A DNA stretch of 64,000 nucleotides from Trypanosoma brucei (Eukaryota). The notes under the pieces are model-generated. The model worked only from the letters and a program-made list of their open reading frames with translations, made no database searches and was not told the origin of the DNA. The position numbers and the translations under genes were made by a program. Where the stretch lies: assembly GCA_000002445.1 (NCBI GenBank), contig CH464491.1:3104001-3168000 (forward strand). The letters run 5' to 3'. Positions 30,336-52,532 of this stretch are shown here, piece after piece. Every line of letters begins with the position of its first letter. Within the stretch, counting starts at the first letter, position 1.

Positions 30336-33012
30336 TTGGCGAAGCGCTTGTAAGCACTGCTCAAAAGCATTTCCACACACACACACACACCTTCACGTTG
30401 TCGCGGAAACGGGGGAGGGGGGAAGGAAGGGGTGCATTTCCCTGTCGGAAAGTTTGCAATAAGTGGAAAGAGCTCGGGCATGCATAACCAAACGAAGCCG
30501 CTGTGTGCTTCTGTTTGTATTCTGCATAAAGTGCAAATATGAGTGGAACTGAAGGTGACTAGTCGTTTCTGACCCTTATCGTAGCGCACTCGTCCCGTCT
30601 CTGTAATTGCGCTGCCGCCGCATATAACCAACTTTGCAGGACCCACCCCTGCGCTGCGTTGCGCAGCGGCAAGAGTGAGGGCAAGGACGCAGTATTGCAC
30701 CCTTCCTTGCCCTATTATCGAAATCCTTTTGTGCGTACGCTTTGATTTGTGTGAATCCCTTTCTGCATTGGAAAATTGAAAACAAAAAAATACTTACACG
30801 TACCCGAAGAAGAGGCAAAAAAAGCCTTTTGATTTTGAATAACATACGTGGGCGCGTTGTTACTTGAATCGTGTTGATGCGGCGCCCATGGTGAAAAGCG
30901 TTGCAAAGGCGTTGTATCTCTATGGGGGTGCATCTCCTGCGTTCGACCTCCTCCCCACTTGATGAATTTGACAAGACACGATAGCGGCCAAATGAAGCAA
31001 GGGTAATTGAGTTTCTTGCGACGCCGGGAGGGCACGCATTCGGAGGGGAAGTTCCAAATTAGTTCAATAGCACAGGAGAGAATGGAAAGGAAGTAAACCG
31101 CGTGAATGTGATTCCTCCCACGGACCCGCCCCCCCCCCAGGATGTGAAAAAGGGCCAATGTTCCATGCCGGCGCTAAATTTCTCAGAGGGAAGGTCAGCA
31201 GCCTGCGGGAGCGGCGGGGTTGCGAGACACAAGTCAAAGCCAACGCACCGCGACTCGGAAAAGGTAGCGAAGGGCGAGGTTCATGAGGTGCTGCGCTTAG
31301 CAAAACCCCACAAACTCCGTTCCGCACTCCACACACCCACATGCCTCGCGCAAAACAAAAAACTGAGCACCCCGGAGCCTGTTTATTGGTACTCGTTTCA
31401 CCCCATCCGGGTGAACATTCACGATGTCGCCAACCCAAGCTGCCAGGTCCACAACCGGTAACAGCTTTGACAAAATGGCAAGCGGCTTTGCAGTGCTGAT
31501 CGATGCCCCGTTTGCCTTGCGACTCACGGCACTCCTCATCTGTGGAACATACGTTGAACCCCTAGAACATGCCAGCCGTAGACGAGTGCCACCGTCGACC
31601 ACGGGCCCTCACACCGGTTACCGCAGGTCACTCGGAAAGGAAGGGGGAGGCGGTCACGGGATGGCGAAGTCGGAGCGCAGGTCAGCGTGACAGAAAAGGA
31701 TAGCCGCATATCATCCGCATGAGCAATGTGGAAAACAACTGGGCGATTGGTTGAATGCAAGTGGGCACTGAAGAATCATGGGGCGTTTCCCCGCACCATC
31801 TCAAACCCCTGGAGGGTATCGTTACACGTGGAGATGCCGAATTTAGGCACCACCAATACAGCCGCACATACTTGCGTGACAGCCAAGTTCACTAGCCACA
31901 ACACGAAGAAGGCAGAATAGGTTAGATAAACCCAGAAGACTGGAAGAAGGATATTGGAAAACAGGAACGGTGCTGAACGGAAGGCCACCGGTGGTGTCTT
32001 CCTCGGATGAAGGCGGCGATGCCTGTTGGGAATTGTCCACCCGCCTCGGAGATTGCGGAAACAAGTGCGCTCAAACCTGCGGATGGCAGGCGCAAATAAA
32101 GGACATGCGGTGGGGAGCGGGAGGGGGGTACGACGAGAGGGCACTCAACGGGTTAAGGGATATACCGCCGAAAGAAAAAAAAGTGGATCAACGCACCCTC
32201 TCCTCTCCGCCGCAACCATTCCCAAAACCCTCCTTCTCACCTCTGTTGCCGTTCCCGGCCCGAGTGATGCGCACCGGTGTGAAGCCGAAGCCCTACTGCC
32301 CTGTGAAGTGCTTTTGAAAGATAACAGGATACGCCCAGTTACGAGGAAGCGAAAGTTTAGGTTGCAACGCCGCATGTGCGACCTTCGACGATTCCCTCCT
32401 GCTCTCAGTCGGTTGCGGGCACCTTCCTTCACATAGCCACGTGGCTTTCTCAGTCGTCTTTTTAGCTCAATCAGTCTTCCACATGTATTACCGCAGTGCG
32501 GAAGTCAGCGGGTTTCTGCTTACGTTTCCTTCTGCGACCTTCAAGCGCCTCCCCGCACCATGCGGTGGTCTCTAAACTGCATCTTTAATGTGATTTTGGG
32601 TGCGTGTCTGGCTCCTCCGAGCCTTCCACATTCCATGTTGGGCTACGGCTTCCCCTTGGTTCTTTCATCTTCGCTAACAACCGCGATCGCCCCATCCACT
32701 TTCCGTTCCGTTGCGCAGCATTCGGTAGACAAGCCGTTCCCCATTACCACCGGGAGCCATCTTAGTAACCCCATGAGGTCTCTTAGAAGTGCCTGCAGGC
32801 GCCCCGCACCAACACCTAACTCGTTATTCGCTCCGCTTCAAGGTTCCCAAGAGCCGCTCGCATTCCCCGATGCGTTGGGTTTCGGGAGCCACTTAATAGA
32901 ACAAAACTGAAGGTGTGCAACCTTCACTGCTACCCTCAGGCAGCCTATCTCAGAACGGCGATACACTATACCGAGGCGAAATTATTCCAGGCTTCTGCTG
33001 CCTAAAATTTAA

Positions 33013-35900
33013 AAACCCTAACCCAAGGAGCACACACACACATACAGACACATTGCATCAGTCAATAACGTCATTTAAGCATCGTCCGCACCACACTTAA
33101 AATACTGCTTTCAGCACTCAAACATTACTCAAACCACTCCTAACGCAGTTGAAGTGCTAATCTCAGAGTTACCTGGAGTACTCATAAATGGCTTTTCAAA
33201 TCAAATGGAGATCACCACACTAGTAAGGCATACAGGACTCGTTACAGCTCAGTATCTCAACACACAAAGAAGGAGGCAGCACAAAGCCCACCCCAAAACA
33301 GCACACATCACTATCCACAATTGTTCGTGGAGCATTCATTTGTGTTAGCGAGACGAGCACAAGAGGAGCAGTTGGTTTCAATCCTTAGTTTGCCGTTTGC
33401 ATAATACATGGTCGAAAACCAATGCCAATATGATTCCTCCTGTGATCTGTAAAATTAACGACCCAACAAAAATTACTAATGTAGGAGTGGGAGGTTCGGC
33501 AGGGTCACGCAGGAAAACGATCGGTGCCATTAAAGGATGCTACTACCATCCAACTCGGAAGCAAATACACGGCGGCATGCATGTGATCGATAAGGAATCA
33601 AATCAAATACAATAGTGAACCCTAGCGGCATCCAAACTGTTAAGAAGATTGACGCTCCGAAGGTGGGTGAGCCAGGATAAAAACAACCAAACAATTCAGT
33701 GGGACGAGTAAGTGACACAGAGGAACCCAATATGGCCAAGTCACAGAAACTATCAGTGGGTACCACAACAAATCTGCAGAAAAAATTAATGGCGTACACT
33801 TCGCAAAACAACGCTCATCCACCATATCAACTCTCCGGTGACACAGCAGCACCAAACAGGCGCCGAGTCACCTTCCAACCCAGGAGTTACTCAGTGTGAC
33901 ACACGTATATGTTGACTTTCATGCCACCACCAGTAGTACACTCACGCTGCTTCAAACCGTGTACCAGCTAACGGCAGGTATATTCATCCAGCACTATAAA
34001 GGAATTAAGCATCTAAGGATACGCAGGCCCTGCTGATTCTGAAACAGTCCCTAATACAATATTATCCTTACCACTAGAAGTAACTAAATTCATTAACAAT
34101 CATGAGGGATATAAAGATAGCAATCGGTTTCTGGAAAAGCACCGAACCAACAGTAAAGAGAAAGTCAACAACGCAGCCACAAGCGTCGAGTTACCAAGGA
34201 GGGGGGCGGTGGTTGGAAGTATTAACGACACATAACGCGCACAACAACTGCCCAATTAAGACGCTTTGCACCCTAAGATCCCCATCAATTCATTTAACAA
34301 ACAAAGAAAGGGATGAGAGGCGGGACTATCATACAGCCACGCTGCTAAGCCTTCCTACGTTAATGCAGAGTGCGGCGGATGTGACAGCAACCCCCCAAAC
34401 CAACAGAAAAAACTCAAGGAAATTATTCTTTACTTTGTATGTGCGTTCTTCTTTCATACATCATTCGGTAGCACTGCTATAGTCAGGAGAACAGAAGCGG
34501 CTTTATTAAAGAGCAATTGCCATTCCCTTAACAACACATCATCTCCTTTAACCAAACCCCATATCTCCTTCTTTCCGATTCTTGTTCCACTCAACTTTAC
34601 ATATCCACAGATGGCTCCTTAGAGGGTTTCTTCCCCCTCGCAGTTAACGAGCCGCTCGGCCTTTGCCTCCGAATGCCGTCCATCTTCTCTTTCATTTCAG
34701 CCATCTGTTCCGCAAGCTTGGTGCGTGCGGCACTCAGCTTCGACAGTTTATCCTTAACTTCATCCTCGGCTTTAATTATATCGGCCTTCTGCTTCTCCAG
34801 GCCCTTCAATCTGAACTGCAGGTCCTTCATATTCTTATCGAACAGATTGTCCTGACTCCTCATGTCACCCATCAGCTCGGTCATTAAGTCCATGTTTTGC
34901 TTCCGGAACTCCGCTTCGCGCCGCGTAATGACGGCTTGCATTTCGATGAGTCTCCGGTCCATGGTTTATTGGGATTCCTTACCGAAGTATCACTTTAAGA
35001 ATATCAGACTGCAGTAGAGGTCTTCACTGCAGTACGTAATAGCTATTCTGAATATATACACAGAACGCTATATTACGTTGTCCAAAAATATTTATATTCT
35101 CCCCGCTGTTTTACCTTTCGTTGTTCTTTCAATACGAGCCTCAGCAAAAAGAAAAAAAATGATTTACAAAAATAGCCTAATACAGGATGCTTTGTCTAGG
35201 TATCGCAAACACTTGAAAAATCTGCAACTAGTAAGGAGGAAGAAGGCACAAATTGGGAGATGGCTGTGACAGTTGTAGTGTCCATAAAATAATTAGCATA
35301 TTACTAGACACGGGAATATGGAGAGAGTACACTTAGCCACACACCAGTAGCGCTACCGGATCTCTGATACACATTTTCACAACCGCAACAGCATCTTATC
35401 TTGTTCCTTGTAGAAGATCCCATTGTTCACACTCATTAAGGAAGCATTAAATCGTCTCATACATAATAGAAAGGTGCTGTGGTAAAGAGAGTGGAAATCC
35501 GCCTTATGGAAGTTAAAGAGGGAATCCATAACCCAACCGGTGCACTTCACGGAATAAATTAAAGCGCACGTATCCACGTATGCACATATTGGTAAAGTTA
35601 GCAAATGCAACACAGATGACAGAGGTACCGAACACCAAACAAATATATTATCAAAGTCTTCAATAATCACATGGTGTGGCAAAATCATGAAAGATACACC
35701 GAACAAAGCGGCACGTGTCACGACTAGAGGTGTGAATGGCAAACGGCGAACAAAACACAGTCAATCAGACACCAAGCCATACGAGCATCAGGTAACTCCT
35801 AAGCGAGCCCTTCAACAGGAAAGAAGCAAAGTAACATTTTTCATCACTTGAAGGACTCCCTTCCAGTTATTGCAAGGTTAGTAAGCAGATGTCGGTTCCC
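33013..35900 (+). repeat. Repeat unit copy A1 (full-length, direct orientation) of a ~2.9 kb element present three times
   Basis: Near-identical to 38988-41105 (offset 5202 nt; only one difference found in the stretches compared) and to the reverse complement of 43860-46905. Identical ORF translations recur at 33154/46572, 33699/46021, 34102/39304, 34597/39799/44808 and 35377/40579/44028. The first ~1.6 kb is strongly A/C-rich on the + strand. Confidence 0.9.
34597..34962 (-). CDS. 121-aa coiled-coil ORF carried by the repeat unit (copy in A1)
   Basis: MDRRLIEMQAVITRREAEFRKQNMDLMTELMGDMRSQDNLFDKNMKDLQFRLKGLEKQKADIIKAEDEVKDKLSKLSAARTKLAEQMAEMKEKMDGIRRQRPSGSLTARGKKPSKEPSVDM has heptad-like, charged, non-random composition and is identical in all three copies. 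No family recognised. Confidence 0.3.
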   Translation of the reverse strand: MDRRLIEMQAVITRREAEFRKQNMDLMTELMGDMRSQDNLFDKNMKDLQFRLKGLEKQKADIIKAEDEVKDKLSKLSAARTKLAEQMAEMKEKMDGIRRQRPSGSLTARGKKPSKEPSVDM

Positions 35901-38199
35901 TGGCTTGAATGCAAACGATGATGGTGTTGTTTGGAAATAAGCAGTGCCTATCCTTGGATGTTTTACGTTTTTTTCAGCAATTTTTCTGCGATAATGAAAA
36001 ATACCGTTCCCTCGGCTGCTTTGCGCTCCACTCCGCAGGTGACGAATATAGTTTACTAACCATATCCTGATCATCCTCACTTGATATCTTCCATAGCACG
36101 GAAGCTGTCCCGTTCATCTCGTCGGGCGGGGATCTACTTTGTAGTGATTTAATGCCACAACGGTGCACATATGATTCACGGAGCCGAATGTTCTTGTATA
36201 AACCATACGGTTCCCACCACCGTCTTTCTTTCTTTTCTTCGCCCCAGCTTAGTGGCCTAAGCAGCTTTGCCGCAACGCCTACCGTCGATCTCTTGGGTTA
36301 GGGCCCTGATTGTTGCGGCTGAGGTAAATGGTTCGGGTAATCTTTCAACCTGAGAGCAATATTCCATCCCATTAGTTTGCGGGCGGTGCTCTCAAGGGTT
36401 GCTAGCCGGAGCAATATCACATCTGCTGCGGATTTGCTTGCATTCGGGAAGTGGTATTATAATGCCCTTCCCTCCGCTTCTTCGGTGCTACACTGTGTTC
36501 CACACAGTGGCTATACAGTTTCGGTAGGTTTTTTTGTCCCCGCCGAGCTTCTATAATCCCACGCACGCATTTTCCCTGTGGACACCGTTCTCACGGATAA
36601 TCCACTTAACACTAACTTTAATTCCTCCATGGCAAGCAAGATGTGCATATAATTCCCTACCCCAGGCAGCGCCGTCTCCGGAGTCCCTAGAACCTTTGCG
36701 AATTCCCTCCTGCTAATCCCTGCAGTTGCCTTTTCTTTGCTGCTTTTGCACCCGGTGGTACCTGCCATGTACCACCACTGGGGTGCTCCGCAGCGTTGGT
36801 GCATATGCCGCATTTACTAAGCTCTGGGTTCATGACTCAGTGAGATTGTGTACACACCCACTGCTACCGCGCGTTCCCTCCAGTGCAGCATACATGGTGA
36901 CAGTGTCATGGCTGTCACGGGTTATGCCAAATATGTTCACACAAGCGTGTATTTATGGGCACTTTTCTGGTGTTAGTCTAACCGACGCTCTTCTAAACTC
37001 TCCCGTTTGTCCTGGCCAATGCACCACATACGTACAGCCCTCTATCGCCACTGACACCCTTAACTCCTTAAGGTGCCATGCTATTCGAGTGTTCCGGAAA
37101 ACCAGGTATCACTTTGCCTTCTACTCGTTCACCGCCCAGACACAACCCCCGCGTAATGCGAAGTCCACCTTAGTCTTCGTGAATGTACTTTGCCAACGCA
37201 AGTCTTTTCAGCTGGGGGAGGACTAAAGTATTCTACCGCGATCCACGTGAAATAGGATCTGTGGTGTTTTTTTTTCCGATATTACCACGCACGGTATCAG
37301 TGGTAGCAAAGCACATATAATCAAAAAAGCGTGCTTTCACGCCCAGTAGATAATAAAGATATCCCTCGCCACCACCGGAGGGGTTACGGCGTTGCTGTAT
37401 GCCCCCACCGTAGTGAACAATGGCAGTTCGGCGGCGTCAATATCCAAAGACTGAGTGATGCAGAAACTTGGTTTGTCCTACAAGGGTATCCGCACAAGAT
37501 GCATGTGCGACACCCCTACTTGCATGCAGAACAGGTGCCTGTTGTGCAACTTCGAAAGCAAATTAGGTCGTTTCTCCGTAACGCATTAAGCTGGGTGAGG
37601 ACAATCATTTAACATCAGAGGACACTGTAAAGGTGTAAGAAGTCTTAGCGGTCGCGCACAGTCAATGCGACAAACACATTCATGTTGTCCTGTGTTTAGT
37701 GCCACAGCCAGAATAAAGGAGCCTGCAGTAGAAAGTAATAAGCTCCTTTCCGCCCCCACCCCGTTCAGGTAGCAGTTCCGTGTTCCCCCATGGTGGGGTT
37801 CCTGTGGAGGCCAATCAACACTGAAAAATATTGGCAACAAAACGAGACTCAGCGAAGAGTAGGCAAACAAAATAAAAAAAAAGTGCAATTGCTCTGCCTA
37901 ACACACTGTTGTTATAGTATCCCTGAGTCCGGAAGGCGGCGCCCCATGCATCGCGCAACGTCACAAAGTCAACCAAACACAGAGAGCATGCAGATTGATA
38001 TCACACGGAAATGATGAACATTCGTCCGTCAGAGGAGGGGAAATAGCGACGGCACGCGCCACTTATCTCGAGAACACGGTAACAAGCACGGCAGCAAACG
38101 ATACGACCCGCACTTAAATATTTCTTTACTTTTCATTGTCTACATACCAGAAACGCAACACCGCCATATCTCTTAAAATCTGCACACCCTTTCATTTCT

Positions 38200-38987
38200 G
38201 CGCACTAGTTTATGAAAAAAAAACAAAGAGTCCCCAAGACAAGCTTGATGCCCAGAAACCACAGTTACTAAACGGTACATCACATTCTTCAGTGCTTCCC
38301 CCTACACCAAAAAGTTGGAAAAACAAACAAACATATGCTACATCAACATTACGACACTGCAGAGCTCCAGAGACATGATTCACACATGCAGAAACAATTA
38401 AAGACAAAACAACTAAAGGACAGAGATGACATATTTTTGTAATAACAATATGGGCACCAACATTTTTCGGAAGATCAGCTAAGGGTAAAAAAAACATATA
38501 TACACATCAGATCCAACCTACAAAATTCAACAAAAAGGAAAGCACAGCAAAAGATCTAGCAAATATATGTAGTAAAACAGAAACGAAGACACAGCAATTA
38601 TTTATATTATTAAAATTACAAATTCTAAACACATTTTAATAAATCAACAAAGCTCCAAGAATGTCAAAAAAAAAAACACGTAACCCACAACAATAAACAA
38701 AACAGGAAACCGCCACCCACAAAAACTGCAACAGCCAACAAAATAGGATTAAACAAAAAAATGAAAAACCCCTCCGTCACCATAAAAACAAATTAATAAT
38801 ATACTAAGAAGAAAAAGCAACCATCCACCACCGAACACAAAAAAATAAGAATATAATATATAAAAAATAAAAAAATTCTAACAAATTATACGGAAGTGGA
38901 ATCTAAATGTAAATATATACAACACCGACTAAAAATCATAAAAAAACAAGAGCAAAAAATACATGAGCATAATTGACAACAAAAAAA
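38200..38987 (+). repeat. ~800 bp A/C-rich low-complexity tract (poly-A runs, acaaaa-like motifs) immediately 5' of repeat copy A2
   Basis: Direct reading: extreme A richness with almost no G/T on the + strand (..caaaaaaaaaaacacgtaacccacaacaataaacaaaacaggaaacc..). Confidence 0.85.
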
Positions 38988-41668
38988 TTAATGGCGTACA
39001 CTTCGCAAAACAACGCTCATCCACCATATCAACTCTCCGGTGACACAGCAGCACCAAACAGGCGCCGAGTCACCTTCCAACCCAGGAGTTACTCAGTGTG
39101 ACACACGTATATGTTGACTTTCATGCCACCACCAGTAGTACACTCACGCTGCTTCAAACCGTGTACCAGCTAACGGCAGGTATATTCATCCAGCACTATA
39201 AAGGAATTAAGCATCTAAGGATACGCAGGCCCTGCTGATTCTGAAACAGTCCCTAATACAATATTATCCTTACCACTAGAAGTAACTAAATTCATTAACA
39301 ATCATGAGGGATATAAAGATAGCAATCGGTTTCTGGAAAAGCACCGAACCAACAGTAAAGAGAAAGTCAACAACGCAGCCACAAGCGTCGAGTTACCAAG
39401 GAGGGGGGCGGTGGTTGGAAGTATTAACGACACATAACGCGCACAACAACTGCCCAATTAAGACGCTTTGCACCCTAAGATCCCCATCAATTCATTTAAC
39501 AAACAAAGAAAGGGATGAGAGGCGGGACTATCATACAGCCACGCTGCTAAGCCTTCCTACGTTAATGCAGAGTGCGGCGGATGTGACAGCAACCCCCCAA
39601 ACCAACAGAAAAAACTCAAGGAAATTATTCTTTACTTTGTATGTGCGTTCTTCTTTCATACATCATTCGGTAGCACTGCTATAGTCAGGAGAACAGAAGC
39701 GGCTTTATTAAAGAGCAATTGCCATTCCCTTAACAACACATCATCTCCTTTAACCAAACCCCATATCTCCTTCTTTCCGATTCTTGTTCCACTCAACTTT
39801 ACATATCCACAGATGGCTCCTTAGAGGGTTTCTTCCCCCTCGCAGTTAACGAGCCGCTCGGCCTTTGCCTCCGAATGCCGTCCATCTTCTCTTTCATTTC
39901 AGCCATCTGTTCCGCAAGCTTGGTGCGTGCGGCACTCAGCTTCGACAGTTTATCCTTAACTTCATCCTCGGCTTTAATTATATCGGCCTTCTGCTTCTCC
40001 AGGCCCTTCAATCTGAACTGCAGGTCCTTCATATTCTTATCGAACAGATTGTCCTGACTCCTCATGTCACCCATCAGCTCGGTCATTAAGTCCATGTTTT
40101 GCTTCCGGAACTCCGCTTCGCGCCGCGTAATGACGGCTTGCATTTCGATGAGTCTCCGGTCCATGGTTTATTGGGATTCCTTACCGAAGTATCACTTTAA
40201 GAATATCAGACTGCAGTAGAGGTCTTCACTGCAGTACGTAATAGCTATTCTGAATATATACACAGAACGCTATATTACGTTGTCCAAAAATATTTATATT
40301 CTCCCCACTGTTTTACCTTTCGTTGTTCTTTCAATACGAGCCTCAGCAAAAAGAAAAAAAATGATTTACAAAAATAGCCTAATACAGGATGCTTTGTCTA
40401 GGTATCGCAAACACTTGAAAAATCTGCAACTAGTAAGGAGGAAGAAGGCACAAATTGGGAGATGGCTGTGACAGTTGTAGTGTCCATAAAATAATTAGCA
40501 TATTACTAGACACGGGAATATGGAGAGAGTACACTTAGCCACACACCAGTAGCGCTACCGGATCTCTGATACACATTTTCACAACCGCAACAGCATCTTA
40601 TCTTGTTCCTTGTAGAAGATCCCATTGTTCACACTCATTAAGGAAGCATTAAATCGTCTCATACATAATAGAAAGGTGCTGTGGTAAAGAGAGTGGAAAT
40701 CCGCCTTATGGAAGTTAAAGAGGGAATCCATAACCCAACCGGTGCACTTCACGGAATAAATTAAAGCGCACGTATCCACGTATGCACATATTGGTAAAGT
40801 TAGCAAATGCAACACAGATGACAGAGGTACCGAACACCAAACAAATATATTATCAAAGTCTTCAATAATCACATGGTGTGGCAAAATCATGAAAGATACA
40901 CCGAACAAAGCGGCACGTGTCACGACTAGAGGTGTGAATGGCAAACGGCGAACAAAACACAGTCAATCAGACACCAAGCCATACGAGCATCAGGTAACTC
41001 CTAAGCGAGCCCTTCAACAGGAAAGAAGCAAAGTAACATTTTTCATCACTTGAAGGACTCCCTTCCAGTTATTGCAAGGTTAGTAAGCAGGTGTCGGTTC
41101 CTTGGCCCAATAGATAATCTTCCTTATTGATGCTCACATTCAATACGCCGAAAGAAATGGTACGGTGCGATTACCACCTCGGAAAAAAGCTCCACCCATG
41201 TAATGGATCCCCAATATAAGGGGCGTGCAACCTGGAAAGAAGGGCAAAAATAAAAAAGAGCCATCGCGGTTACACCTCGCCTTTACGCACTGTATGTGAT
41301 GTTCATGCCAAGCACACCCGTACTCCGCTACGTCCTCGCTGGCTCTGGAATCCCGCTGCCATGGAGGGGTGCCCACTCATGGTGGGGATGAAGACGCGTG
41401 GCGCCTGCCGCGCTGGGCAGGGGGGCGGGGGAAAGCGGAGGGAGGCCAGGCGACGTTTTTAACCGCCTGTGCGTCTCAGATTATCACCCCATATAGCACT
41501 GACCTACCCAGATTGGGAATTGCGAGCTCATTACCACTTCGTAAAAGATGGAACGACCAACACACGGCAACCAGCACATCGGCCCACGCACCCCTCCCTT
41601 CTCCACCAGGGGAGAAGCAAGAGTAGTGAATGCGACACCGCCTTGGGCATCTCACTGCGTTACCGCGG
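38988..41668 (+). repeat. Repeat unit copy A2 (direct orientation; 5'-truncated relative to A1; carries a 560 bp extension shared only with the inverted copy). Left arm of the long palindrome
   Basis: 38988-41105 matches A1 33782-35900. 41105-41668 is matched only by the reverse complement of 43296-43860. The arm ends at ...gcatctcactgcgttaccgcggcc. Confidence 0.9.
39799..40164 (-). CDS. 121-aa coiled-coil ORF (copy in A2)
   Basis: Identical translation to 34597..34962. Confidence 0.3.
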   Translation of the reverse strand: MDRRLIEMQAVITRREAEFRKQNMDLMTELMGDMRSQDNLFDKNMKDLQFRLKGLEKQKADIIKAEDEVKDKLSKLSAARTKLAEQMAEMKEKMDGIRRQRPSGSLTARGKKPSKEPSVDM

Positions 41669-43295
41669 CCCTACATCAACCGGATGCCCGAGTGAAATAG
41701 GATGGCCGCACTAAATAATATACTAGCAACCGCGGACCTGGCTTCTGGTAGACCCGTTGTTTTTATTGGCGATATAATTTTTTTTGTTTAAGCTTGTTAC
41801 ACCACTTTTTGTAGTTTGCTGAATAGGTATCTCCTTATATCTCTTGTCATCGGTATTAGATAACGGTAAAGGTGCTGAGCTGAATGTGGAGGTTTTACCT
41901 TTTTTCATTGGAAGCTGACCTATTATGTGCGTTAGGGTCTTAAGGCATTAAATGTTGCTATGAGCAGAGGGGTATATTGCCTTCAGCGCGTGTGTGTCTT
42001 CTCTGGGTGTGCGGTGCTTCCTTCCCAGAGAGGCACACCGTTCGCGACCAAAGGTCTGTTTAAAACCGTTGCTTCAGGTGTGCCGGCGGCCCTTCAACAT
42101 GATTGTTCTCGAACACTGTTTTGTTTAGCTGACTATGTGGACTTAAGGTAGGGAAAATACACTACCTTATTTAAACATTTTAGCACAAAAAATAAATCAG
42201 CAATTGCGGGGGATTTTACAAGTAACCTTTTGTTTCAACTGAAATCAGGAATACAAGGGTCGAATCTTCAGCGGAAATGGTGGCCTACCAAGTTAAGGAT
42301 ACAAAACTGACGGAGCACAAAACCACATCTGGACTCATGCGTAGACCGCGCCACTGTAGTGCCGAGTCATGTGTCAGAGTGAGAGGCGCCTTTGACAACA
42401 CGACTGGACAACTACTCGATTTCCCGTTTCAATATGCGCCACTCCGCCTAAGCATATTCTGCGCTCACTTTCAGGTGAAACGACCTCCAGAAGAGGAAAA
42501 GGTAAAATTAAAGCAGCAGAGCAACAACATGAGCAACCGTGAAAACAATAGATGCAAGTAACAGCATTCTGTAACAGAGGGCGCGTGTTCTGCGCGAAGT
42601 GCGTGTTAAGGGCTGGTGAAAGCCGCCGCCACTCAAAGAAAATTGGTTACTTAGCCCCGCCAAATCCCTGTATTTTAGTTTGGCCGCGCCCTTGTTGCTC
42701 CAGCCGCACGGCGTACACGCGTATTAGCATAGAATTCTCAACCATTCTTCCCGTATAATCTTAAACCTCTTCGGGGGAGCGTAATTGACTAACGCCACGC
42801 CTGAACGTATCTAAGGGCCTTCTGGAAATAATTTTTGCCTTGCAACGGATCTAGTGCGCTCCCCACTATGAGTTGATACCGTTGCCTTTCCGCCCCACTT
42901 TAATCCTCGTAGAATAAGATGAAGCCGCTCGGCTTTCGCTATCCGAGTAGGGTGCCGGAGCCTGGTAGCACGTTTGGGTGGCCCGCATCGCCAGGAGAAA
43001 CGAAATTATATCATTTCCCGCGATACACACCAAAACTTAACAAATACACCAGAGGCTAACTATTTCTTTACATTAGGCACTTCCTGCCAAAACAGCTGAT
43101 CGACACCGTCTCAACAAATGTAAGGCGTGGCTGTGAGCCTTCCTGGGGTCAGGAGGCGGCGGCGATGCAAGTGCCGGTTGGCGCCGGGGTGCCTGAATCG
43201 TTTGGGACTGTGGCCAGCACCCTTCGTATAAAACGCTTGCGAGTCGCCGGCCCCTCACGATTTGAGCATTACGTGCTTGTTGGCATTGAGGTTAC
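41669..43295. other. Unique ~1.6 kb central spacer of the palindrome (no repeat partner, no ORF over 100 aa)
   Basis: Flanked by exact inverted copies: 41369..41626(+)/43346..43603(-) and 41469..41714(+)/43255..43503(-) give identical translations on opposite strands. The sequence between the points where the arms diverge is single-copy in this window. Confidence 0.8.
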
Positions 43296-44807
43296 AGTGC
43301 TGGCCGCGGTAACGCAGTGAGATGCCCAAGGCGGTGTCGCATTCACTACTCTTGCTTCTCCCCTGGTGGAGAAGGGAGGGGTGCGTGGGCCGATGTGCTG
43401 GTTGCCGTGTGTTGGTCGTTCCATCTTTTACGAAGTGGTAATGAGCTCGCAATTCCCAATCTGGGTAGGTCAGTGCTATATGGGGTGATAATCTGAGACG
43501 CACAGGCGGTTAAAAACGTCGCCTGGCCTCCCTCCGCTTTCCCCCGCCCCCCTGCCCAGCGCGGCAGGCGCCACGCGTCTTCATCCCCACCATGAGTGGG
43601 CACCCCTCCATGGCAGCGGGATTCCAGAGCCAGCGAGGACGTAGCGGAGTACGGGTGTGCTTGGCATGAACATCACATACAGTGCGTAAAGGCGAGGTGT
43701 AACCGCGATGGCTCTTTTTTATTTTTGCCCTTCTTTCCAGGTTGCACGCCCCTTATATTGGGGATCCATTACATGGGTGGAGCTTTTTTCCGAGGTGGTA
43801 ATCGCACCGTACCATTTCTTTCGGCGTATTGAATGTGAGCATCAATAAGGAAGATTATCTATTGGGCCAAGGAACCGACATCTGCTTACTAACCTTGCAA
43901 TAACTGGAAGGGAGTCCTTCAAGTGATGAAAAATGTTACTTTGCTTCTTTCCTGTTGAAGGGCTCGCTTAGGAGTTACCTGATGCTCGTATGGCTTGGTG
44001 TCTGATTGACTGTGTTTTGTTCGCCGTTTGCCATTCACACCTCTAGTCGTGACACGTGCCGCTTTGTTCGGTGTATCTTTCATGATTTTGCCACACCATG
44101 TGATTATTGAAGACTTTGATAATATATTTGTTTGGTGTTCGGTACCTCTGTCATCTGTGTTGCATTTGCTAACTTTACCAATATGTGCATACGTGGATAC
44201 GTGCGCTTTAATTTATTCCGTGAAGTGCACCGGTTGGGTTATGGATTCCCTCTTTAACTTCCATAAGGCGGATTTCCACTCTCTTTACCACAGCACCTTT
44301 CTATTATGTATGAGACGATTTAATGCTTCCTTAATGAGTGTGAACAATGGGATCTTCTACAAGGAACAAGATAAGATGCTGTTGCGGTTGTGAAAATGTG
44401 TATCAGAGATCCGGTAGCGCTACTGGTGTGTGGCTAAGTGTACTCTCTCCATATTCCCGTGTCCAGTAATATGCTAATTATTTTATGGACACTACAACTG
44501 TCACAGCCATCTCCCAATTTGTGCCTTCTTCCTCCTTACTAGTTGCAGATTTTTCAAGTGTTTGCGATACCTAGACAAAGCATCCTGTATTAGGCTATTT
44601 TTGTAAATCATTTTTTTTCTTTTTGCTGAGGCTCGTATTGAAAGAACAACGAAAGGTAAAACAGAGGGGAGAATATAAATATTTTTGGACAACGTAATAT
44701 AGCGTTCTGTGTATATATTCAGAATAGCTATTACGTACTGCAGTGAAGACCTCTACTGCAGTCTGATATTCTTAAAGTGATACTTCGGTAAGGAATCCCA
44801 ATAAACC

Positions 44808-45173
44808 ATGGACCGGAGACTCATCGAAATGCAAGCCGTCATTACGCGGCGCGAAGCGGAGTTCCGGAAGCAAAACATGGACTTAATGACCGAGCTGATG
44901 GGTGACATGAGGAGTCAGGACAATCTGTTCGATAAGAATATGAAGGACCTGCAGTTCAGATTGAAGGGCCTGGAGAAGCAGAAGGCCGATATAATTAAAG
45001 CCGAGGATGAAGTTAAGGATAAACTGTCGAAGCTGAGTGCCGCACGCACCAAGCTTGCGGAACAGATGGCTGAAATGAAAGAGAAGATGGACGGCATTCG
45101 GAGGCAAAGGCCGAGCGGCTCGTTAACTGCGAGGGGGAAGAAACCCTCTAAGGAGCCATCTGTGGATATGTAA
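44808..45173 (+). CDS. 121-aa coiled-coil ORF (copy in A3, here on the + strand)
   Basis: Identical translation to 34597..34962 and 39799..40164. Confidence 0.3.
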   Translation: MDRRLIEMQAVITRREAEFRKQNMDLMTELMGDMRSQDNLFDKNMKDLQFRLKGLEKQKADIIKAEDEVKDKLSKLSAARTKLAEQMAEMKEKMDGIRRQRPSGSLTARGKKPSKEPSVDM

Positions 45174-45244
45174 AGTTGAGTGGAACAAGAATCGGAAAGA
45201 AGGAGATATGGGGTTTGGTAAAGGAGATGATGGTGTAAGGAATG

Positions 45245-45344
45245 NNNNNNNNNNNNNNNNNNNNNNNNNNNNNNNNNNNNNNNNNNNNNNNNNNNNNNNN
45301 NNNNNNNNNNNNNNNNNNNNNNNNNNNNNNNNNNNNNNNNNNNN
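45245..45344. other. Assembly gap (exactly 100 N) inside repeat copy A3
   Basis: Run of n characters. The sequence on both sides repeats ggggtttggt(t)aaaggagatgatg, so the gap sits in a locally duplicated or collapsed motif. Confidence 0.95.
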
Positions 45345-46905
45345 GGAAGAAGAGATTGGGGTTTGGTTAAAGGAGATGATGTGTTGTTAAGGGAATGGCA
45401 ATTGCTCTTTAATAAAGCCGCTTCTGTTCTCCTGACTATAGCAGTGCTACCGAATGATGTATGAAAGAAGAACGCACATACAAAGTAAAGAATAATTTCC
45501 TTGAGTTTTTTCTGTTGGTTTGGGGGGTTGCTGTCACATCCGCCGCACTCTGCATTAACGTAGGAAGGCTTAGCAGCGTGGCTGTATGATAGTCCCGCCT
45601 CTCATCCCTTTCTTTGTTTGTTAAATGANATTGATGGGGATCTTAGGGTGCAAAGCGTCTTAATTGGGCAGTTGTTGTGCGCGTTATGTGTCGTTAATAC
45701 TTCCAACCACCGCCCCCCTCCTTGGTAACTCGACGCTTGTGGCTGCGTTGTTGACTTTCTCTTTACTGTTGGTTCGGTGCTTTTCCAGAAACCGATTGCT
45801 ATCTTTATATCCCTCATGATTGTTAATGAATTTAGTTACTTCTAGTGGTAAGGATAATATTGTATTAGGGACTGTTTCAGAATCAGCAGGGCCTGCGTAT
45901 CCTTAGATGCTTAATTCCTTTATAGTGCTGGATGAAATATACCTGCCGTTAGCTGGTACACGGTTTGAAGCAGCGTGAGTGTACTACTGGTGGTGGCATG
46001 AAAGTCAACATATACGTGTGTCACACTGAGTAACTCCTGGGTTGGAAGGTGACTCGGCGCCTGTTTGGTGCTGCTGTGTCACCGGAGAGTTGATATGGTG
46101 GATGAGCGTTGTTTTGCGAAGTGTACGCCATTAATTTTTTCTGCAGATTTGTTGTGGTACCCACTGATAGTTTCTGTGACTTGGCCATATTGGGTTCCTC
46201 TGTGTCACTTACTCGTCCCACTGAATTGTTTGGTTGTTTTTATCCTGGCTCACCCACCTTCGGAGCGTCAATCTTCTTAACAGTTTGGATGCCGCTAGGG
46301 TTCACTATTGTATTTGATTTGATTCCTTATCGATCACATGCATGCCGCCGTGTATTTGCTTCCGAGTTGGATGGTAGTAGCATCCTTTAATGGCACCGAT
46401 CGTTTTCCTGCGTGACCCTGCCGAACCTCCCACTCCTACATTAGTAATTTTTGTTGGGTCGTTAATTTTACAGATCACAGGAGGAATCATATTGGCATTG
46501 GTTTTCGACCATGTATTATGCAAACGGCAAACTAAGGATTGAAACCAACTGCTCCTCTTGTGCTCGTCTCGCTAACACAAATGAATGCTCCACGAACAAT
46601 TGTGGATAGTGATGTGTGCTGTTTTGGGGTGGGCTTTGTGCTGCCTCCTTCTTTGTGTGTTGAGATACTGAGCTGTAACGAGTCCTGTATGCCTTACTAG
46701 TGTGGTGATCTCCATTTGATTTGAAAAGCCATTTATGAGTACTCCAGGTAACTCTGAGATTAGCACTTCAACTGCGTTAGGAGTGGTTTGAGTAATGTTT
46801 GAGTGCTGAAAGCAGTATTTTAAGTGTGGTGCGGACGATGCTTAAATGACGTTATTGACTGATGCAATGTGTCTGTATGTGTGTGTGTGCTCCTTGGGTT
46901 AGGGG

Positions 46906-47800
46906 TTTTAAAGTTAATCTTAGCTTTTTTTGTTCTTCCAGTTGAATGTTGTTGTTTATGTTTTTCGTGGATATAGTGTTGTTTTAAAGCGTAAGGAATT
47001 TTTTGACGATATATTTCTATTTATTATTTTAAATCTGTTGTTGGTGAATGTAGATTTTGTTTTGTTGACTTAATTTGTCTTCTTTTTTGTTTCTTTGTTC
47101 TTTTTTTTTTTTTGTGTGGTGCCTTGTAATTCTTCTTTTTTTATCTTGGTGATTTTGCATGATAATGCTTTGTGTGTGAATATTTGTTTACCGATTAGCT
47201 CATTAATGGTCATATGTGACTTATAAGTTCGTTTATTTGTGGCAGATTGTGTTATTTTTATATGGCTTTAGTTCATCTTGCTGCAGCGGTTTTTATTAGA
47301 TTAATTTTTCGATACCTGTTTGTTGACGTTAAAGTGTGTTGGTGAGTGATGGCCTCTTATCTTGGCGTGTTGCGACGCATAGTTCCATTATTACTTAGTT
47401 GTGTATAAGTGACTGCTCATCTTTTGCTAGTGGTTAATCATTGCGGATGGGGTTAAGCGAATCACGTATAATTAAAATTGAAAAATTGGTGGGAGCAGTT
47501 ACTGCACGGTGTTGCATCGTTGTTTGGTGTGTGTGTGTGGTGTTGCTGCCGTAACATGCAGCAAAAATCTCGGTACTGAATGCCTTTGTTTTGCATGCTA
47601 CAGTGCTTTGGCAACGAAATTCACCGCCTCCGTAACTTCGATGTACGGGGTGCTTGTGATTTGTTGCTAGTGCCTGTGTTTGAAGAGTGAAAGATATTTT
47701 CTATACCTAAAAGAAGTTGACATGAAAGGGTCTTGGCAAATGAATGGTGGCTCAATGAAACATAAAAAAGAGAGGGGTCTTTAAAAAAAAAAAAAAAGAA
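46906..47800 (+). repeat. ~0.9 kb G/T-rich low-complexity tract flanking the inverted copy (compositional mirror of the 38200-38987 A/C-rich tract)
   Basis: Direct reading: T/G-rich with poly-T runs (..ttgttcttttttttttttttgtgtggtgcc..). Not an exact reverse complement of the left tract but the same motif flavour, consistent with diverged outer palindrome arms. Confidence 0.7.
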
Positions 47801-49690
47801 CGCGCCTCTACGGTTCGCCAATATTAGTAAATGCCTTTAACTCTTCGCGTTGTATTCAGCTCGTGTTGGAGGCGTGCAAGCGTATCCTTGGTGTTGTTTA
47901 ATTCATATGTGCTCTGTGGAAGTGATGGCCTCCTAAATGTGGTACCAGAGACGGCAGTACTGCTCACATGGAGAACTGTGTTGTGTTTTGGTTGAGGTAT
48001 GTGGTGCAGCACAAGGATGAGTCGCTCTGTGCCGAGGCGCCGCTTTTCTACCTTGTCGGTGCGTGGCCGCGTGCAAATGGGCTGTCAGCACTATCCCTCC
48101 CAATGAAATTGTTATCGGTGCGAGATGGGATGTCCCTGGAGCCATGTGATGGATCCTTGAAAGCAGTCTGTAGAGCTGATTAGTTGGAAACCAAGTAGAT
48201 GAAGTCAAGTGTTTGGCGCATTCATCTTCGGTTAGCGGTATGCATCGAAACAACTTTTTTTCGTGAAGCGGAGGTCGTGGGGCTAAAGGGTAGCCAACCT
48301 CCACATCCCTGTTCATGTTGCTTTGTATGGCGCGTCCACCGAAAAGGCAAATGGCTGAAGGTAATCATATACGGAAATAGAGCAACACACTCTTTGACAG
48401 AAGGTGTTCGGCACTACTCTCCGAGCAGCAGGGGCACATGGTTCGTACAGGTTCGGGTGACGCAACTGACGGCTGAAAGTATAGCGACAGGCACTACATT
48501 CTGTTCTCCACCTGAACACTTTGGGCGAGCAGATGTTTCCCCGGACATTTTCACTTCTTGTGGCAGAGAGGTTGAATCGTTTGCATACCGTCTGCAAAAT
48601 GACATCTACCCCGGCATTGGCGTTTGTTTTGCAACCCACGGTGGGACATGCATGGCATGTCACCAACTTCTGAGAACGAGGCTCCTGATCATTCAGAATA
48701 CCTTCTGGGAATGAGAATGCACGACATATTATCCAGGAGGAAATCAAGAGCGGGTATCTTCGTGTTGTCCAAGCGGTCGGATCAAGGGTTGGCATGCTAT
48801 TTCGCCGCGATGCCACGCACACTGAATGCGAACAGGGCTTGTGACCTTGTTGTCTGTAATCTGATCACCTTTCCGTCATCGAGACTGCCTTGTCACCGGG
48901 CCTGCAAGGTTACTGAAGGGAGGAGGGTTTGGATTCTCAACGAGGCATGAGCAGGCTTTTCCTGATTGAAAATAGCCAGCGGCGATGATAAATTCTGATT
49001 TCCTAGGCATCCACCCTTTGATCCATCACGTTCCGGAGCGTCTGGTCCGGATGAAGGTTTGACCATTCAATTTCTTCCGTTATTCTTGTTTTGCTCATGG
49101 CAGAAGTTTTGCCGCGCGGTGTTTCCATTTTTTTTTTTCTTTTGCATTCCAGCTCCCGTCAAGTCAGTTTTACCTGACTCCAGTTTCCACCAACCCTCGC
49201 ACTACCTTTCGGCGGAGTAACCCTATGATCGGTGTTGTGCGCGTGCCCATAGCAGGGCGATGCAATGAGCGCCTCCTCGCTCGGCCATCGAAGGAGGTCC
49301 CTAAAAGTTATCAAGAAGAAAAGAAAGCACCGAATGGTAGCGTTTTGCTGTACCACGTTTTTAAGATGACATAGTTCGGTAGCAAAATTTGTGACGAAAA
49401 TGAACACACACACACACACGTATATATATATATACTCTCAAGCTAAGGTAGTTTGAGACTTGCTTTGGTTAGGCCGTTTTTTGTGCTGTCGGGAGACTTT
49501 TCCCCCCTGGAAACCTTTCCCTGTTAAGCGCCGGTGAGGGTGGTTACAGCCACAGCGCCGCGTGTGACAAGCATGATGATTAAGCACCCCTCGGAAGAAA
49601 CCCTTTATCCCTTGATGTAGGAAAATCCACTCGGCACGTGTTCGCCTTCGAGTTTTTGCCAGCTTAGACCATTCTAAGGTTTGGCTTTCT

Positions 49691-50680
49691 TCATCTGCGT
49701 GGGCCAGTTTTGAGACACCGCTGATTCCATTCCAAGAAGCGCCGTTCGCACCGCGTTGTGCAAATGGTTACTTTTTTGCTGGCGGTAAGTGGCACCTCGG
49801 GGAGAAACTGCCGGTATAAAGAAAGGCTTAGGTTGGCCAGCGTAAGTGAGCCTAGTTCCACGCTAGCTTCCATCAGTAGTTCAGCAGCTACAGACCCGCG
49901 TTTTTCGTAGCTTCCGGGTAGAGACAGTCCGCAGTCTGCTCCGCCTCCTGTGATGCAGTCTTCCATAACAAAAGTTGCTTGTGAAGAAGCTATATCTCCC
50001 ATAGCCAAACAAAGCCCCAAACCGCGCAGGAAAGGCACCCAGTTCTCGTTGCTCACCCCCTTCGCACGGCATTTCTGCACGACGGAACGGTCATCCCCGT
50101 CGTACTCGCCAAGAAGGTCCACAAGCAGCCTTAGCAGAACGTCCGACCGCTCCTCTCCAAAAAACAACTTGAACTTTTCCGGATGTCGCATGACACTTAT
50201 GGGATGAACGAAAAATTGTGATGGTTTGACGTTTGGGGCGATGGCACCGTGCAACACCGCTCTTTCAAAGATTAAGCGACTCTCAAACAGGCAGTAGGCG
50301 TAAACGTGGGGGTGATACGGCAGTGAAATCAGCCTTACTGCTTCGGTTGTGGAGTAACCACAGGGCGGTGCTGTGTCAGAAGAAAATGGCAGGTGCATAG
50401 ACAAGAGGTCATTATCCTCAGAAGCACTCGATGCCTTTTTCCGTTCGGCACCGAATGTCCTTTCAACCCATGACCCTCGGTTGCACTTCTGTGTGAACTG
50501 ACAAAGCGGGCGACAAACTTTCATTAAATACTTTACCTTACTTTGTTGTAAAAGCAGCTGGGGGTGGGTGGTTGAGGTGCTCGACATGTGGTATTTGAAG
50601 GAAGGGGAAACATGGGTAGGGTTGAGAGTGCTCCCAACAGTGGCTGCGCCGGCTTTGAGACTAATCGGTGACAGTGGCAA
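49691..50680 (-). CDS. Hypothetical protein (329 aa) on the minus strand; the only candidate minus-strand gene in the window
   Basis: Long ORF with non-repetitive, protein-like composition (..CRPLCQFTQKCNRGSWVERTFGAERKK..HPHVYAYCLFESRLIFERAVLHGAIAPNVKP..). The only long opposite-strand ORF is 85 aa. No family recognised. Confidence 0.4.
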   Translation of the reverse strand: MPLSPISLKAGAATVGSTLNPTHVSPSFKYHMSSTSTTHPQLLLQQSKVKYLMKVCRPLCQFTQKCNRGSWVERTFGAERKKASSASEDNDLLSMHLPFSSDTAPPCGYSTTEAVRLISLPYHPHVYAYCLFESRLIFERAVLHGAIAPNVKPSQFFVHPISVMRHPEKFKLFFGEERSDVLLRLLVDLLGEYDGDDRSVVQKCRAKGVSNENWVPFLRGLGLCLAMGDIASSQATFVMEDCITGGGADCGLSLPGSYEKRGSVAAELLMEASVELGSLTLANLSLSLYRQFLPEVPLTASKKVTICTTRCERRFLEWNQRCLKTGPRR

Positions 50681-52370: not shown

Positions 52371-52532
52371 ATTACTCTGTAAATCTCTTTTTTTTTTTGT
52401 AGTTGTGACACTGCCCACAGACTTCCCGCCTTTATGTGTCTTGTCAAACGTGGGTTACCACAAAATGGTGGCGGTGGCGGCGAATTCGTTCTTTGTTGTT
52501 CTACTTTTTTCAAAAGAAAGTGTTGCGTAAGT

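Follow-up and report, generated by a model that had tools for sequence, protein, structure and literature searches.

Long inverted repeats with near-identical arms have already been catalogued in Trypanosoma brucei. In strain TREU927 Tschudi et al. (2012, PMC3447711) list seven of them, IR1-IR7, which have arms of 0.4-10 kb with 99-100% identity (0-14 mismatches) and spacers of a few kb; they were defined functionally by siRNA production, PCR has verified two or more of them, and the authors called them a curiosity as such repeats are usually destabilising. The locus described here, known from sequence alone, is an ordinary member of this class, found in the same organism and built in the same way from near-identical inverted arms and a spacer, although it was not identifiable in the table of that paper, where the sole chromosome 11 entry, IR7 (4.219-4.231 Mb), lies approximately 1 Mb to the right of its expected position. 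The passages of the paper that deal with these repeats report no gene content, concerted evolution or spacer inversion (PMC3447711). Our analysis covered a window of 64,000 nucleotides, which most likely represents TREU927 chromosome 11 around Tb927.11.11960-12100; the PP4c protein of the window is identical only to EAN80144.1 (TREU927), and its PIG-L gene (59482-60309) is the counterpart of GPI12, Tb927.11.12080.

Other described systems are comparable in part. The ampliconic palindromes of primate sex chromosomes have gene-bearing inverted arms in which Rozen et al., in 2003, reportedly found arm-to-arm gene conversion. In the flip-flop inversion of plastid genomes, the yeast 2-micron plasmid and herpesvirus segments, a unique segment between identical inverted repeats occurs in both orientations. 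Trypanosomatid dosage arrays (tubulin, histones, PGK) hold near-identical copies of a highly expressed structural gene which are kept homogeneous by recombination and in which copy number is the expression lever under polycistronic transcription.

A preliminary description of this DNA had presented a near-perfect palindrome with two inverted arms around a unique centre of about 1.6 kb. This was confirmed: the arms were found within about 10 bp of where it had placed them, and the centre (Y) was unique, measured 1631 bp and was not itself palindromic, with no Pfam domains and no tRNA or Rfam matches. The near-100% arm identity also held when the arms were compared base by base, as copy B (2689 bp) and its partner in copy C differed by 3 substitutions and no indels over approximately 2.7 kb (N gap and redundant edges masked). 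The arm identity of 99.5-99.6% returned by BLAST is too low because the sequence is poor at the edges of the N gap, and chance cannot produce 2.7 kb at >99.8% identity. The extent claimed for the arms was correct for the inner right arm, while the last 775 bp of copy C (46141-46915) had no partner in copy B and paired instead with 33005-33779, part of a third copy (copy A) which the two-copy reading had overlooked.

The three copies represent one unit of approximately 3.46 kb, in which a 366-bp coding sequence has about 1.5 kb upstream of it and about 1.6 kb downstream (Table 1). Copies A and B are in direct orientation on the minus strand at an offset of 5202 bp, with 3.1 kb of unrelated DNA (segment X) between them, while copy C is on the plus strand, inverted relative to A and head to head with B around Y. 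Copy A matched copy C at 33008-34573 (46912-45347) and 34521-35904 (45244-43866), and 33780-35904 was 99.86% identical to 38982-41106 of copy B. Segment X showed no similarity to the unit, Y or the flanks and, when translated in six frames, no Pfam domain; the 1 kb nearest to B is rich in A on the plus strand (38-39 kb, GC 34%, AT skew +0.41). Two or more segmental duplications produced the copies, and their breakpoints, which are sharp and non-homologous, are older than the split between T. b. brucei, T. equiperdum and T. b. gambiense.

Table 1. Coordinates of the features of the CAP15 locus within the window.
Feature	Position	Strand	Description
Left flank	30336..33004		Unique non-coding DNA between the last plus-strand gene and the 3' end of copy A
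Copy A	33005..35904	-	3' end complete; 5' end truncated at unit position ~565
CAP15 coding sequence, copy A	34597..34962	-	121 aa; identical to B and C copies
Segment X	35905..38981		Unique DNA between A and B; sharp non-homologous junctions on both sides
Copy B, left arm	38982..41670	-	5' end complete; 3' end truncated 817 bp past the stop codon
CAP15 coding sequence, copy B	39799..40164	-	Identical to A and C copies
Centre Y	41671..43301		Unique 1631-bp spacer between divergent B and C; inverted in DAL972
Copy C, right arm	43302..46915	+	Sole full-length unit; 43302-46140 pairs with B, 43866-46915 with A
CAP15 coding sequence, copy C	44808..45173	+	Identical to A and B copies
False assembly gap, 100 N	45245..45344		Two contig ends overlapping by ~50 bp

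Each of the three copies carries an intact ORF, 100% identical between them, whose product is an exact match in NCBI and UniProt to EAN80148.1 / Q382Y3, annotated as corset-associated protein 15 / microtubule-associated protein. The exact protein match was found in T. brucei TREU927 and T. equiperdum, and a homologue with 66% identity is present in T. congolense. CAP15 is a characterised microtubule-stabilising protein which is upregulated in bloodstream forms (PMC2443814; PMC4152294). Since every copy contains an intact CAP15 gene, the interval is not gene-free as had been thought. No DAL972-specific substitutions were found in the CAP15 coding sequence, with the remainder of the unit approximately 1.5% diverged. 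Overall, the palindrome is probably best explained as a three-copy CAP15 gene locus, subject to gene conversion and straddling a strand switch. If the 3.5-kb unit were instead a retroposon or a decayed ingi/DIRE-type element inserted three times, this would suit the presence of three near-identical copies where conserved genes are scarce, the GC content of the unit, which is below that of the flanks, and the A-B spacing of 5.2 kb, which resembles the length of ingi. We give this next to no credence, as a search of the unit, X and Y in every frame gave no Pfam domain, whether reverse transcriptase, endonuclease or other, the sole conserved ORF is a host cytoskeletal gene, the junction sequences show that the ends differ among the three copies, and all three exact CAP15 copies of T. 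equiperdum IVM-t1 are located at this locus.

The same A-X-B-Y-C order was present, without a gap, in T. equiperdum IVM-t1 chromosome CM010682.1, and in T. b. gambiense DAL972 chromosome FN554974.1, where B-Y-C lies within one contig. The preliminary description had raised an assembly artefact as an alternative because of the N gap in the right arm, and the joining of contigs across this gap could have duplicated a single CAP15 unit by mistake or turned it the wrong way. The gap does exist but is spurious and hides nothing: the same ~50 bp stands in low-quality form at each of its edges, and copies A and B and IVM-t1 have this stretch uninterrupted; the IVM-t1 sequence is unbroken across the position, with two alignments that overlap by 53 bp. 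Contigs from OVI short reads end within the repeat, 31 and 35 bp from its edges, and IVM-t1 had only ~7,500 PacBio reads, both of which would suit an artefact; since TREU927 served as the reference for ordering the chromosomes of IVM-t1 and DAL972, their independence holds for contigs and not for scaffolds. However, the sequence runs unbroken through the junctions of Y with B and with C, be it in the window, IVM-t1 or DAL972, the copies contain private variants, and both outer flanks adjoin the 3' end of an outward-facing unit, which requires at least one inversion point between them. Among the T. brucei inverted repeats already described, some that resemble this one have also been confirmed by PCR (PMC3447711). 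With the architecture common to the gapless IVM-t1 and to DAL972, an artefact is very improbable and we consider it largely excluded.

Within each genome the arms differed by 3 substitutions in 927, 6 in DAL972 and 0 in IVM-t1, the last value being suspect as this assembly was Pilon-polished, while the arms of the 927/IVM group differed from those of DAL972 by 38-42 substitutions. The latter divergence is the neutral non-coding rate; between 927 and DAL972, single-copy non-coding flanks differ by 1.6-3.3% and coding genes by 0.3-0.7%. Among the 46 variable sites in the three genomes, 34 distinguished DAL972 from the rest with the change in both arms and 3 were IVM-specific in both arms (37/46 lineage-specific in total), and at no site did B copies, or C copies, of different genomes group together. 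Because lineage-specific changes are common to both arms and the breakpoints are conserved in all three genomes, the homogenisation proposed earlier is upheld as an ongoing process; judged from these sites, the arms undergo concerted evolution by recurrent intrachromosomal gene conversion, although their identity may be inflated where a repeat exceeds the read length and assemblers or polishers combine the reads of its copies. As in the primate palindromes, gene-bearing arms flank a unique spacer, boundaries are common to the lineages and arm identity is far above that of orthologous arms between lineages; the primate palindromes also have known inversions of the spacer. The arms are 2.7 kb here as opposed to 9 kb to 1.45 Mb there, a third, direct copy joins the homogenisation, and since this chromosome is diploid and recombining there is no argument for conversion as a substitute for meiotic recombination.

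Positions 19320-20798 of the DAL972 sequence correspond to 43148-41671 of the window, reversed. Opposite orientation of Y is the expected product of reciprocal exchange (crossing-over) between inverted arms but could be an assembly orientation ambiguity, as orienting Y takes a read at least as long as an arm and an inversion is otherwise indistinguishable from an arbitrary assembly choice. The contrast between 927/IVM-t1 and DAL972 resembles flip-flop inversion with this same reservation, yet here the orientations occur in assemblies of different subspecies rather than as isomers of one population, and no site-specific recombinase is implied.

Transcription polarity, including the predicted expression of the minus-strand copies, was read from CDS orientation and GC skew alone. 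Cumulative GC skew reached a maximum at 31-32 kb and a minimum at 42-43 kb, within Y, which suggests a convergent strand switch and termination region in the left flank, with the switch near 31-32 kb, and a divergent strand switch in Y, where transcription probably starts in both directions. As inverted copies of C, A and B owe part of their skew to this origin; skew is negative in the unrelated segment X too. The last plus-strand gene before the left flank encodes a 321-aa EGF-like protein, and synteny with T. vivax and T. theileri stops at 30335. A convergent stop has been recorded beside Tb927.11.11990 (PMC3332058). RNA polymerase II starting in Y would transcribe B and A leftward and C and the downstream genes rightward, and near 31-32 kb the leftward mini-unit would meet the plus-strand cluster that lies upstream.

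The earlier placement at a transcription-unit boundary is thereby retained in spirit, as a putative convergent and divergent switch, but its centromere-associated or repeat-rich part is not. In T. brucei, centromeres and replication origins are found at such boundaries, and the position of the locus at one, and at a trypanosome synteny breakpoint, would suit selection for a cis-acting DNA structure in its own right, be it a repeat associated with centromeres, a terminator that forms a cruciform or a replication element. Cruciform extrusion is made less likely by a spacer of 1.6 kb, however, and for a spacer of this size the argument that the repeat should be unstable is weak on general grounds of inverted-repeat biology. 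Tschudi et al. did speculate on selection for hairpin formation in repeats of this kind (PMC3447711). We consider selection of the structure very improbable: AT-rich tandem arrays of any period were absent from 30-50 kb, as were rRNA, tRNA or Rfam matches and retroelement domains or remnants, the arms are complete gene units of which the CAP15 coding sequence alone is conserved between subspecies, and a flipped centre is tolerated in DAL972. The palindromic shape would rather follow incidentally from the site at which the inverted copy came to lie.

The inverted copies could also form an siRNA locus, in which plus-strand read-through from the upstream cluster (antisense-B, Y and sense-C) would give a 2.7-kb double-stranded RNA, a hairpin diced by DCL2 to dampen CAP15, for example in procyclic forms, which have low CAP15 mRNA. 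CAP15 is developmentally regulated, in keeping with this, but stage regulation in trypanosomes is normally 3'UTR-driven. All seven catalogued TREU927 repeats, and all convergent units, are described as yielding AGO1-bound siRNAs in procyclic cells, mostly DCL2-dependent (PMC3447711). A chromosome 11 interval (3133413-3152201, 18.8 kb), tied to the window by matching size and expected position only, has a small-RNA signal of 15.7 RPM, up to 33 in the H3.V knockout (PMC4721609 S2 Table). Against this, the locus is absent from the seven inverted repeats and convergent units listed by Tschudi et al., with IR7 at 4.22 Mb and this locus expected near 3.1-3.3 Mb, and loss of DCL2 was without effect on mRNA levels for the two convergent units tested (PMC3447711). 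A role of this kind is unlikely.

For the three-copy CAP15 locus, a Y region without a start site would leave A and B antisense inside one long plus-strand unit. The locus has a likeness to the dosage arrays outlined above, although those are head-to-tail within one transcription unit and here, with one copy inverted, the family straddles a strand switch. Trypanosomes are without gene-specific transcriptional control, so the payoff would be gene dosage, three CAP15 copies increasing production of a cytoskeletal protein which is abundant and shows enrichment in the bloodstream form.

A repeat search and self-BLAST of the window confirmed the long inverted repeat which the preliminary description had placed in this interval, and the two inverted arms are indeed present, but that description had seen only part of a structure which consists of three copies (A, B and C) of one unit of ~3.46 kb. 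Copies B and C form the arms around a centre, Y, and a further segment, X, lies between A and B; the positions of these and of the neighbouring genes are collected in the table below. Only the inner part of C (43302-46140) pairs with B, the remaining 775 bp on its outside match the outer end of A (33005-33779), and the part common to A and B amounts to 2125 bp in direct orientation at an offset of 5202 bp. The arms at 38982-41670 and 43302-46140, with their 1631-bp spacer, have the arm length, orientation and spacer of the long inverted repeats of T. brucei as well as the 99%–100% arm identity of that class. An arm identity well under ~99% would have spoken against a near-perfect palindrome; between B and C there were 3 substitutions and not one indel in ~2690 aligned bases (N gap masked).

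Features of the CAP15 locus and its neighbourhood, in window positions
Feature	Position	Strand	Description
PP4c	26072-26992		protein identical only to TREU927 EAN80144.1
EGF-like gene	ends 30335	+	321 aa; last plus-strand gene before the locus
Copy A	33005-35904		direct to B, inverted relative to C (repeat search, self-BLAST)
CAP15 CDS, copy A	34597-34962	-	121-aa ORF
Segment X	35905-38981		unique, between A and B
Copy B (left arm)	38982-41670		direct to A (repeat search, self-BLAST)
CAP15 CDS, copy B	39799-40164	-	121-aa ORF, start codon 40164
Centre Y	41671-43301		1631 bp, unique
Copy C (right-hand copy)	43302-46915		reverse orientation to A and B (repeat search, self-BLAST)
CAP15 CDS, copy C	44808-45173	+	121-aa ORF, start codon 44808
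Minus-strand ORF	49691-50680	-	329 aa
Minus-strand ORF	50742-51239	-	165 aa
ORF adjoining the locus	51687-52370	+	227 aa
PIG-L gene	59482-60309		GPI12, Tb927.11.12080

The repeat junctions were abrupt, Y was without self-similarity, and sensitive BLAST revealed no mutual similarity among X, Y, both outer flanks and the unit. If the copies were old paralogues in which conversion reached only part of the sequence, residual homology should persist past the repeat edges, and the same sensitive BLAST found none; since no homology extends beyond them, the edges are true rearrangement breakpoints. Two low-complexity tracts were observed just outside the arms, at 38000-38981 beside B (GC 34%, AT skew +0.41) and at 46916-48000 beside C (GC 38%, AT skew -0.275), which are mirror images, both T-rich on the CAP15 coding strand, and which could not be aligned with each other. 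A separate direct repeat of 480 bp (1132-1611 and 1889-2368, 99.6% identity, offset 757 bp) was present close to the window's left end.

The interval had been described as gene-free, but each copy of the unit carries a 121-aa ORF which is identical in all three. By exact-sequence look-up this ORF is EAN80148.1 / Q382Y3_TRYB2, an entry which in T. brucei and T. equiperdum carries the name "corset-associated protein 15" or "microtubule-associated protein". The match identifies it as the gene for CAP15, a 15-kDa subpellicular microtubule-associated protein whose function we take from the literature: CAP15 (earlier identifier Tb11.01.3805; PMC2443814) has been characterised, stabilises subpellicular microtubules and is higher in bloodstream forms (PMC2443814; PMC4152294; PMC8625193). 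One more distant homologue was found, a T. congolense protein of 148 aa which is 66% identical, and both this homologue and the orthologue of a flanking gene are on record as proteins. The CAP15 CDS contained no changes specific to the T. b. gambiense genome (DAL972), and the remainder of the unit was ~1.5% diverged between the subspecies.

Pfam domains were found neither in six-frame translations of X and Y nor in the unit's open stretches of 50 aa or more, ARAGORN and Rfam gave no tRNA or Rfam match anywhere in the window, which speaks against such non-coding RNA genes at the boundary, and Tandem Repeats Finder detected no tandem arrays in 30-50 kb, only two short T-rich microrepeats. Since the CAP15 copies are present and arrays, non-coding RNAs and transposon domains are absent, the interval is a small gene family locus. 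The centromeric or structural role offered in the preliminary description found no support: T. brucei centromeres are marked by AT-rich tandem arrays (e.g. of the 147-bp CIR147 type) together with degenerate retroelements and/or rRNA genes, and 30-50 kb held microrepeats only, with no rRNA and no reverse-transcriptase or endonuclease domains. A non-LTR retroposon (ingi/RIME/DIRE/SLACS), which would be expected to show reverse-transcriptase/endonuclease remnants, common termini, a poly(A) tail and a target-site duplication, was likewise rejected on the Pfam result, on copy ends which are unlike and on junctions with no visible duplications.

We consider it very unlikely that the inverted repeat was created by assembly. 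This possibility had been raised because of the 100-N gap inside C (45245-45344), but the ~50 bp on either side of the gap are degraded versions of one stretch, which copies A and B and the T. equiperdum genome IVM-t1 contain without interruption, and low-quality contig ends flank the gap. The gap is false, its flanks overlapping by ~50 bp, and no sequence is missing. An isolated single N was also seen at 45629. Comparison with related trypanosome genomes, a check which the preliminary description had proposed, revealed the inverted architecture in both IVM-t1 (CM010682.1) and DAL972 (FN554974.1), although the chromosomes of both were ordered on TREU927 and IVM-t1 is a Pilon-polished assembly of very low PacBio coverage. 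IVM-t1 is 99.4%–99.6% identical to the window and keeps the order A-X-B-Y-C with no gap, and in DAL972, which is ~98% identical, the end of X, B, Y, C and the right flank lie within one uninterrupted contig. The contigs of T. equiperdum OVI end 31 bp into B and resume 35 bp inward from the outer edge of C, which is the behaviour expected of short-read assembly at a repeat. Both outer flanks adjoin the 3' end of a unit, so that an inversion point must exist between them.

Substitutions were counted across the B and C arms of the window (TREU927-type sequence, 927), IVM-t1 and DAL972. The two arms of one genome differed by 3 substitutions in 927, 0 in IVM-t1 and 6 in DAL972, compared with 4–5 between the arms of 927 and IVM-t1 and 38–42 between those of either genome and DAL972. 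At 34 of the 46 variable sites both DAL972 arms differed from all other arms and at 3 an IVM-specific base was present in both IVM arms, so that 37 of the 46 were lineage-specific in both arms; at none of the 46 did the B copies of the three genomes, or their C copies, group together. Copy A followed the same pattern. Between 927 and DAL972, single-copy non-coding DNA beside the repeat was 1.6%–3.3% different and coding genes were 0.3%–0.7% different; judged against the flanks, the arms thus evolve neutrally between lineages and are near-identical within each genome. The breakpoints are unchanged across 927, IVM-t1 and DAL972, which makes the duplications older than the lineage split, and with duplications this old the homogeneity within each genome has to stem from repeated gene conversion, the "ongoing homogenisation" suggested in the preliminary description.

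Arms which are closer within a genome than orthologous arms are between genomes, with conserved breakpoints and a unique spacer possibly found in either orientation, characterise gene-converting palindromes, and the arms and breakpoints of the CAP15 locus behave in this way. Pooling of reads by assemblers could inflate arm identity; it cannot explain why the full between-lineage divergence is carried by both arms. The history of the locus needs at least two duplications and the acquisition of X. The mechanism resembles that of the sex-chromosome palindromes of primates, which undergo gene conversion, and that of plastid flip-flop inverted repeats.

The centre Y is a unique, non-palindromic spacer which is oriented in IVM-t1 as in the window and inverted in DAL972, either by a real inversion or by a choice made in assembly. 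Positions 19320-20798 of the DAL972 stretch (L010) aligned in reverse with window 43148-41671, the whole centre there occupying 19220-20798 compared with 41671-43301 in the window. The 94 bp adjoining B in DAL972 are the 94 bp adjoining C in the window, and ~59 bp (window 43149-43207) were unaligned in this comparison. An inverted Y is exactly the product that a crossover between the inverted arms would give, but the DAL972 orientation may also reflect an arbitrary assembly choice, because reads shorter than an arm cannot orient Y.

The gene orientations suggest that strands switch divergently in Y, which CAP15 B leaves on the minus strand and CAP15 C on the plus, and convergently in the stretch from the last plus-strand gene, ending at 30335, to copy A with its 3' end. 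Transcription polarity was read from GC skew, polypyrimidine-tract strand bias being uninformative; cumulative GC skew had its maximum at 31-32 kb and its minimum at 42-43 kb, and X, although unrelated to the unit, also had negative GC skew. Judged by orientation and skew, the boundary position assigned to the interval in the preliminary description was partly right. Tb927.11.11990 has been listed as the last ORF of a unit at a convergent stop (Ouna et al., PMC3332058). Start regions of RNA polymerase II are marked by enrichment of H2A.Z/H2B.V, H4K10ac and BDF3 and by the mapped 5' ends of primary transcripts. In the arrangement suggested by orientation and skew, RNA polymerase II would start in both directions within Y, B and A would form a two-gene minus-strand unit, and C would head a plus-strand unit running through the 227-aa gene, NSA1 and beyond. 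The three CAP15 copies probably serve gene dosage, the protein being structural and abundant and the organism having no gene-specific promoters.

The flanking proteins are encoded by trypanosome housekeeping genes. The candidate minus-strand gene which had been taken to bound the interval, and at which some annotations also give the impression of a strand switch, is probably spurious: the ORFs of 329 and 165 aa at 49691-51239 were 2.0% and 3.2% diverged between 927 and DAL972, a non-coding rate, had no Pfam match, and are annotated elsewhere as 277 and 235, 160 and 165 or 372 and 95 aa, inconsistently between assemblies. The 227-aa ORF was 1.9% diverged from its DAL972 counterpart, which has 226 aa, and their alignment contained 3 indel columns; being far less conserved than its neighbours, it is of uncertain gene status. 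The NSA1/WD40 gene (52434-53603) has 389 aa in TREU927, OVI and DAL972 and 302 aa in IVM-t1 (17737-18645 of the stretch L001), which is probably an annotation or frameshift problem of the draft.

Synteny with T. vivax and T. theileri included PP4c, COX15 and the 321-aa EGF-like gene and ended exactly there (window 30335, compared with 14400-20900 of the T. vivax stretch L012 and 15450-20400 of the T. theileri stretch L014). Beyond this point T. vivax has CEP44 and then minus-strand genes, and T. theileri has two GP63 (Peptidase_M8) genes; the CAP15 locus therefore lies at a lineage-specific breakpoint as well as at a transcription-unit boundary. The identifiers of PP4c, GPI12 and CAP15 place the window most likely on TREU927 chromosome 11, around Tb927.11.11960-12100. 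In DAL972 the locus is found 3.18 Mb along a total of 4.53 Mb, and the core of TREU927 chromosome 11 ends at 4.48 Mb.

Tschudi et al. 2012 (PMC3447711) describe seven long inverted repeats of 422 bp-10 kb in TREU927, 99%–100% identical, all seven of which are siRNA sources and two of which were verified by PCR; the authors found the arm identity puzzling. Members of this class have inverted arms of at least ~400 bp on one chromosome with a spacer, 99%–100% identity and AGO1-bound, Dicer-dependent siRNAs of 22-25 nt. Their sole chromosome 11 entry, IR7, has repeats 1,814 bp long and is placed at 4,219,000-4,231,000 (PMC3447711), and at 4222111-4229999 by Reynolds et al. (PMC4721609 S2 Table). 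By position (~3.18 Mb in DAL972 against 4.219-4.231 Mb) the CAP15 locus is probably not IR7, the position relative to IR7 and CTU49 being judged from indirect estimates. Lying so far from IR7, the CAP15 locus is probably separate and absent from the table of Tschudi et al., and thus probably an uncatalogued long inverted repeat. The best candidate for the CAP15 interval, matched on size and position, is an 18.8-kb chromosome 11 "cSSR" at 3133413-3152201 in the S2 Table of Reynolds et al., where the small-RNA signal is 15.7 RPM in the wild type and 33 once H3.V is knocked out (PMC4721609).

The inverted CAP15 pair could also be read as a built-in, stage-dependent RNAi switch in which a read-through hairpin acts against CAP15, a reading which we regard as unlikely. 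Leaky termination at the upstream convergent boundary, for instance in procyclic forms or at low H3.V or base J, would allow plus-strand read-through to produce a putative antisense-B/sense-C hairpin, which DCL2 would dice into putative siRNAs silencing all three CAP15 copies. Gene conversion would then keep the arms perfectly complementary because hairpin and protein would both be under selection.

The CAP15 locus is no new kind of element. A ~19-kb "empty" strand-switch interval of the T. brucei reference in fact contains three copies of a cytoskeletal gene which has already been characterised, and a published convergent strand-switch table probably also treats it as empty. Because multi-mapping reads are often thrown away, the locus is likely to be under-reported in data on chromatin marks, small RNAs and the expression of CAP15. 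As a compact, datable trypanosome case in which the arms convert each other and the spacer may have inverted, the locus could be used to measure how often inverted repeats recombine in mitosis. It is also a natural test bed for whether read-through over inverted genes feeds the endogenous RNAi pathway.
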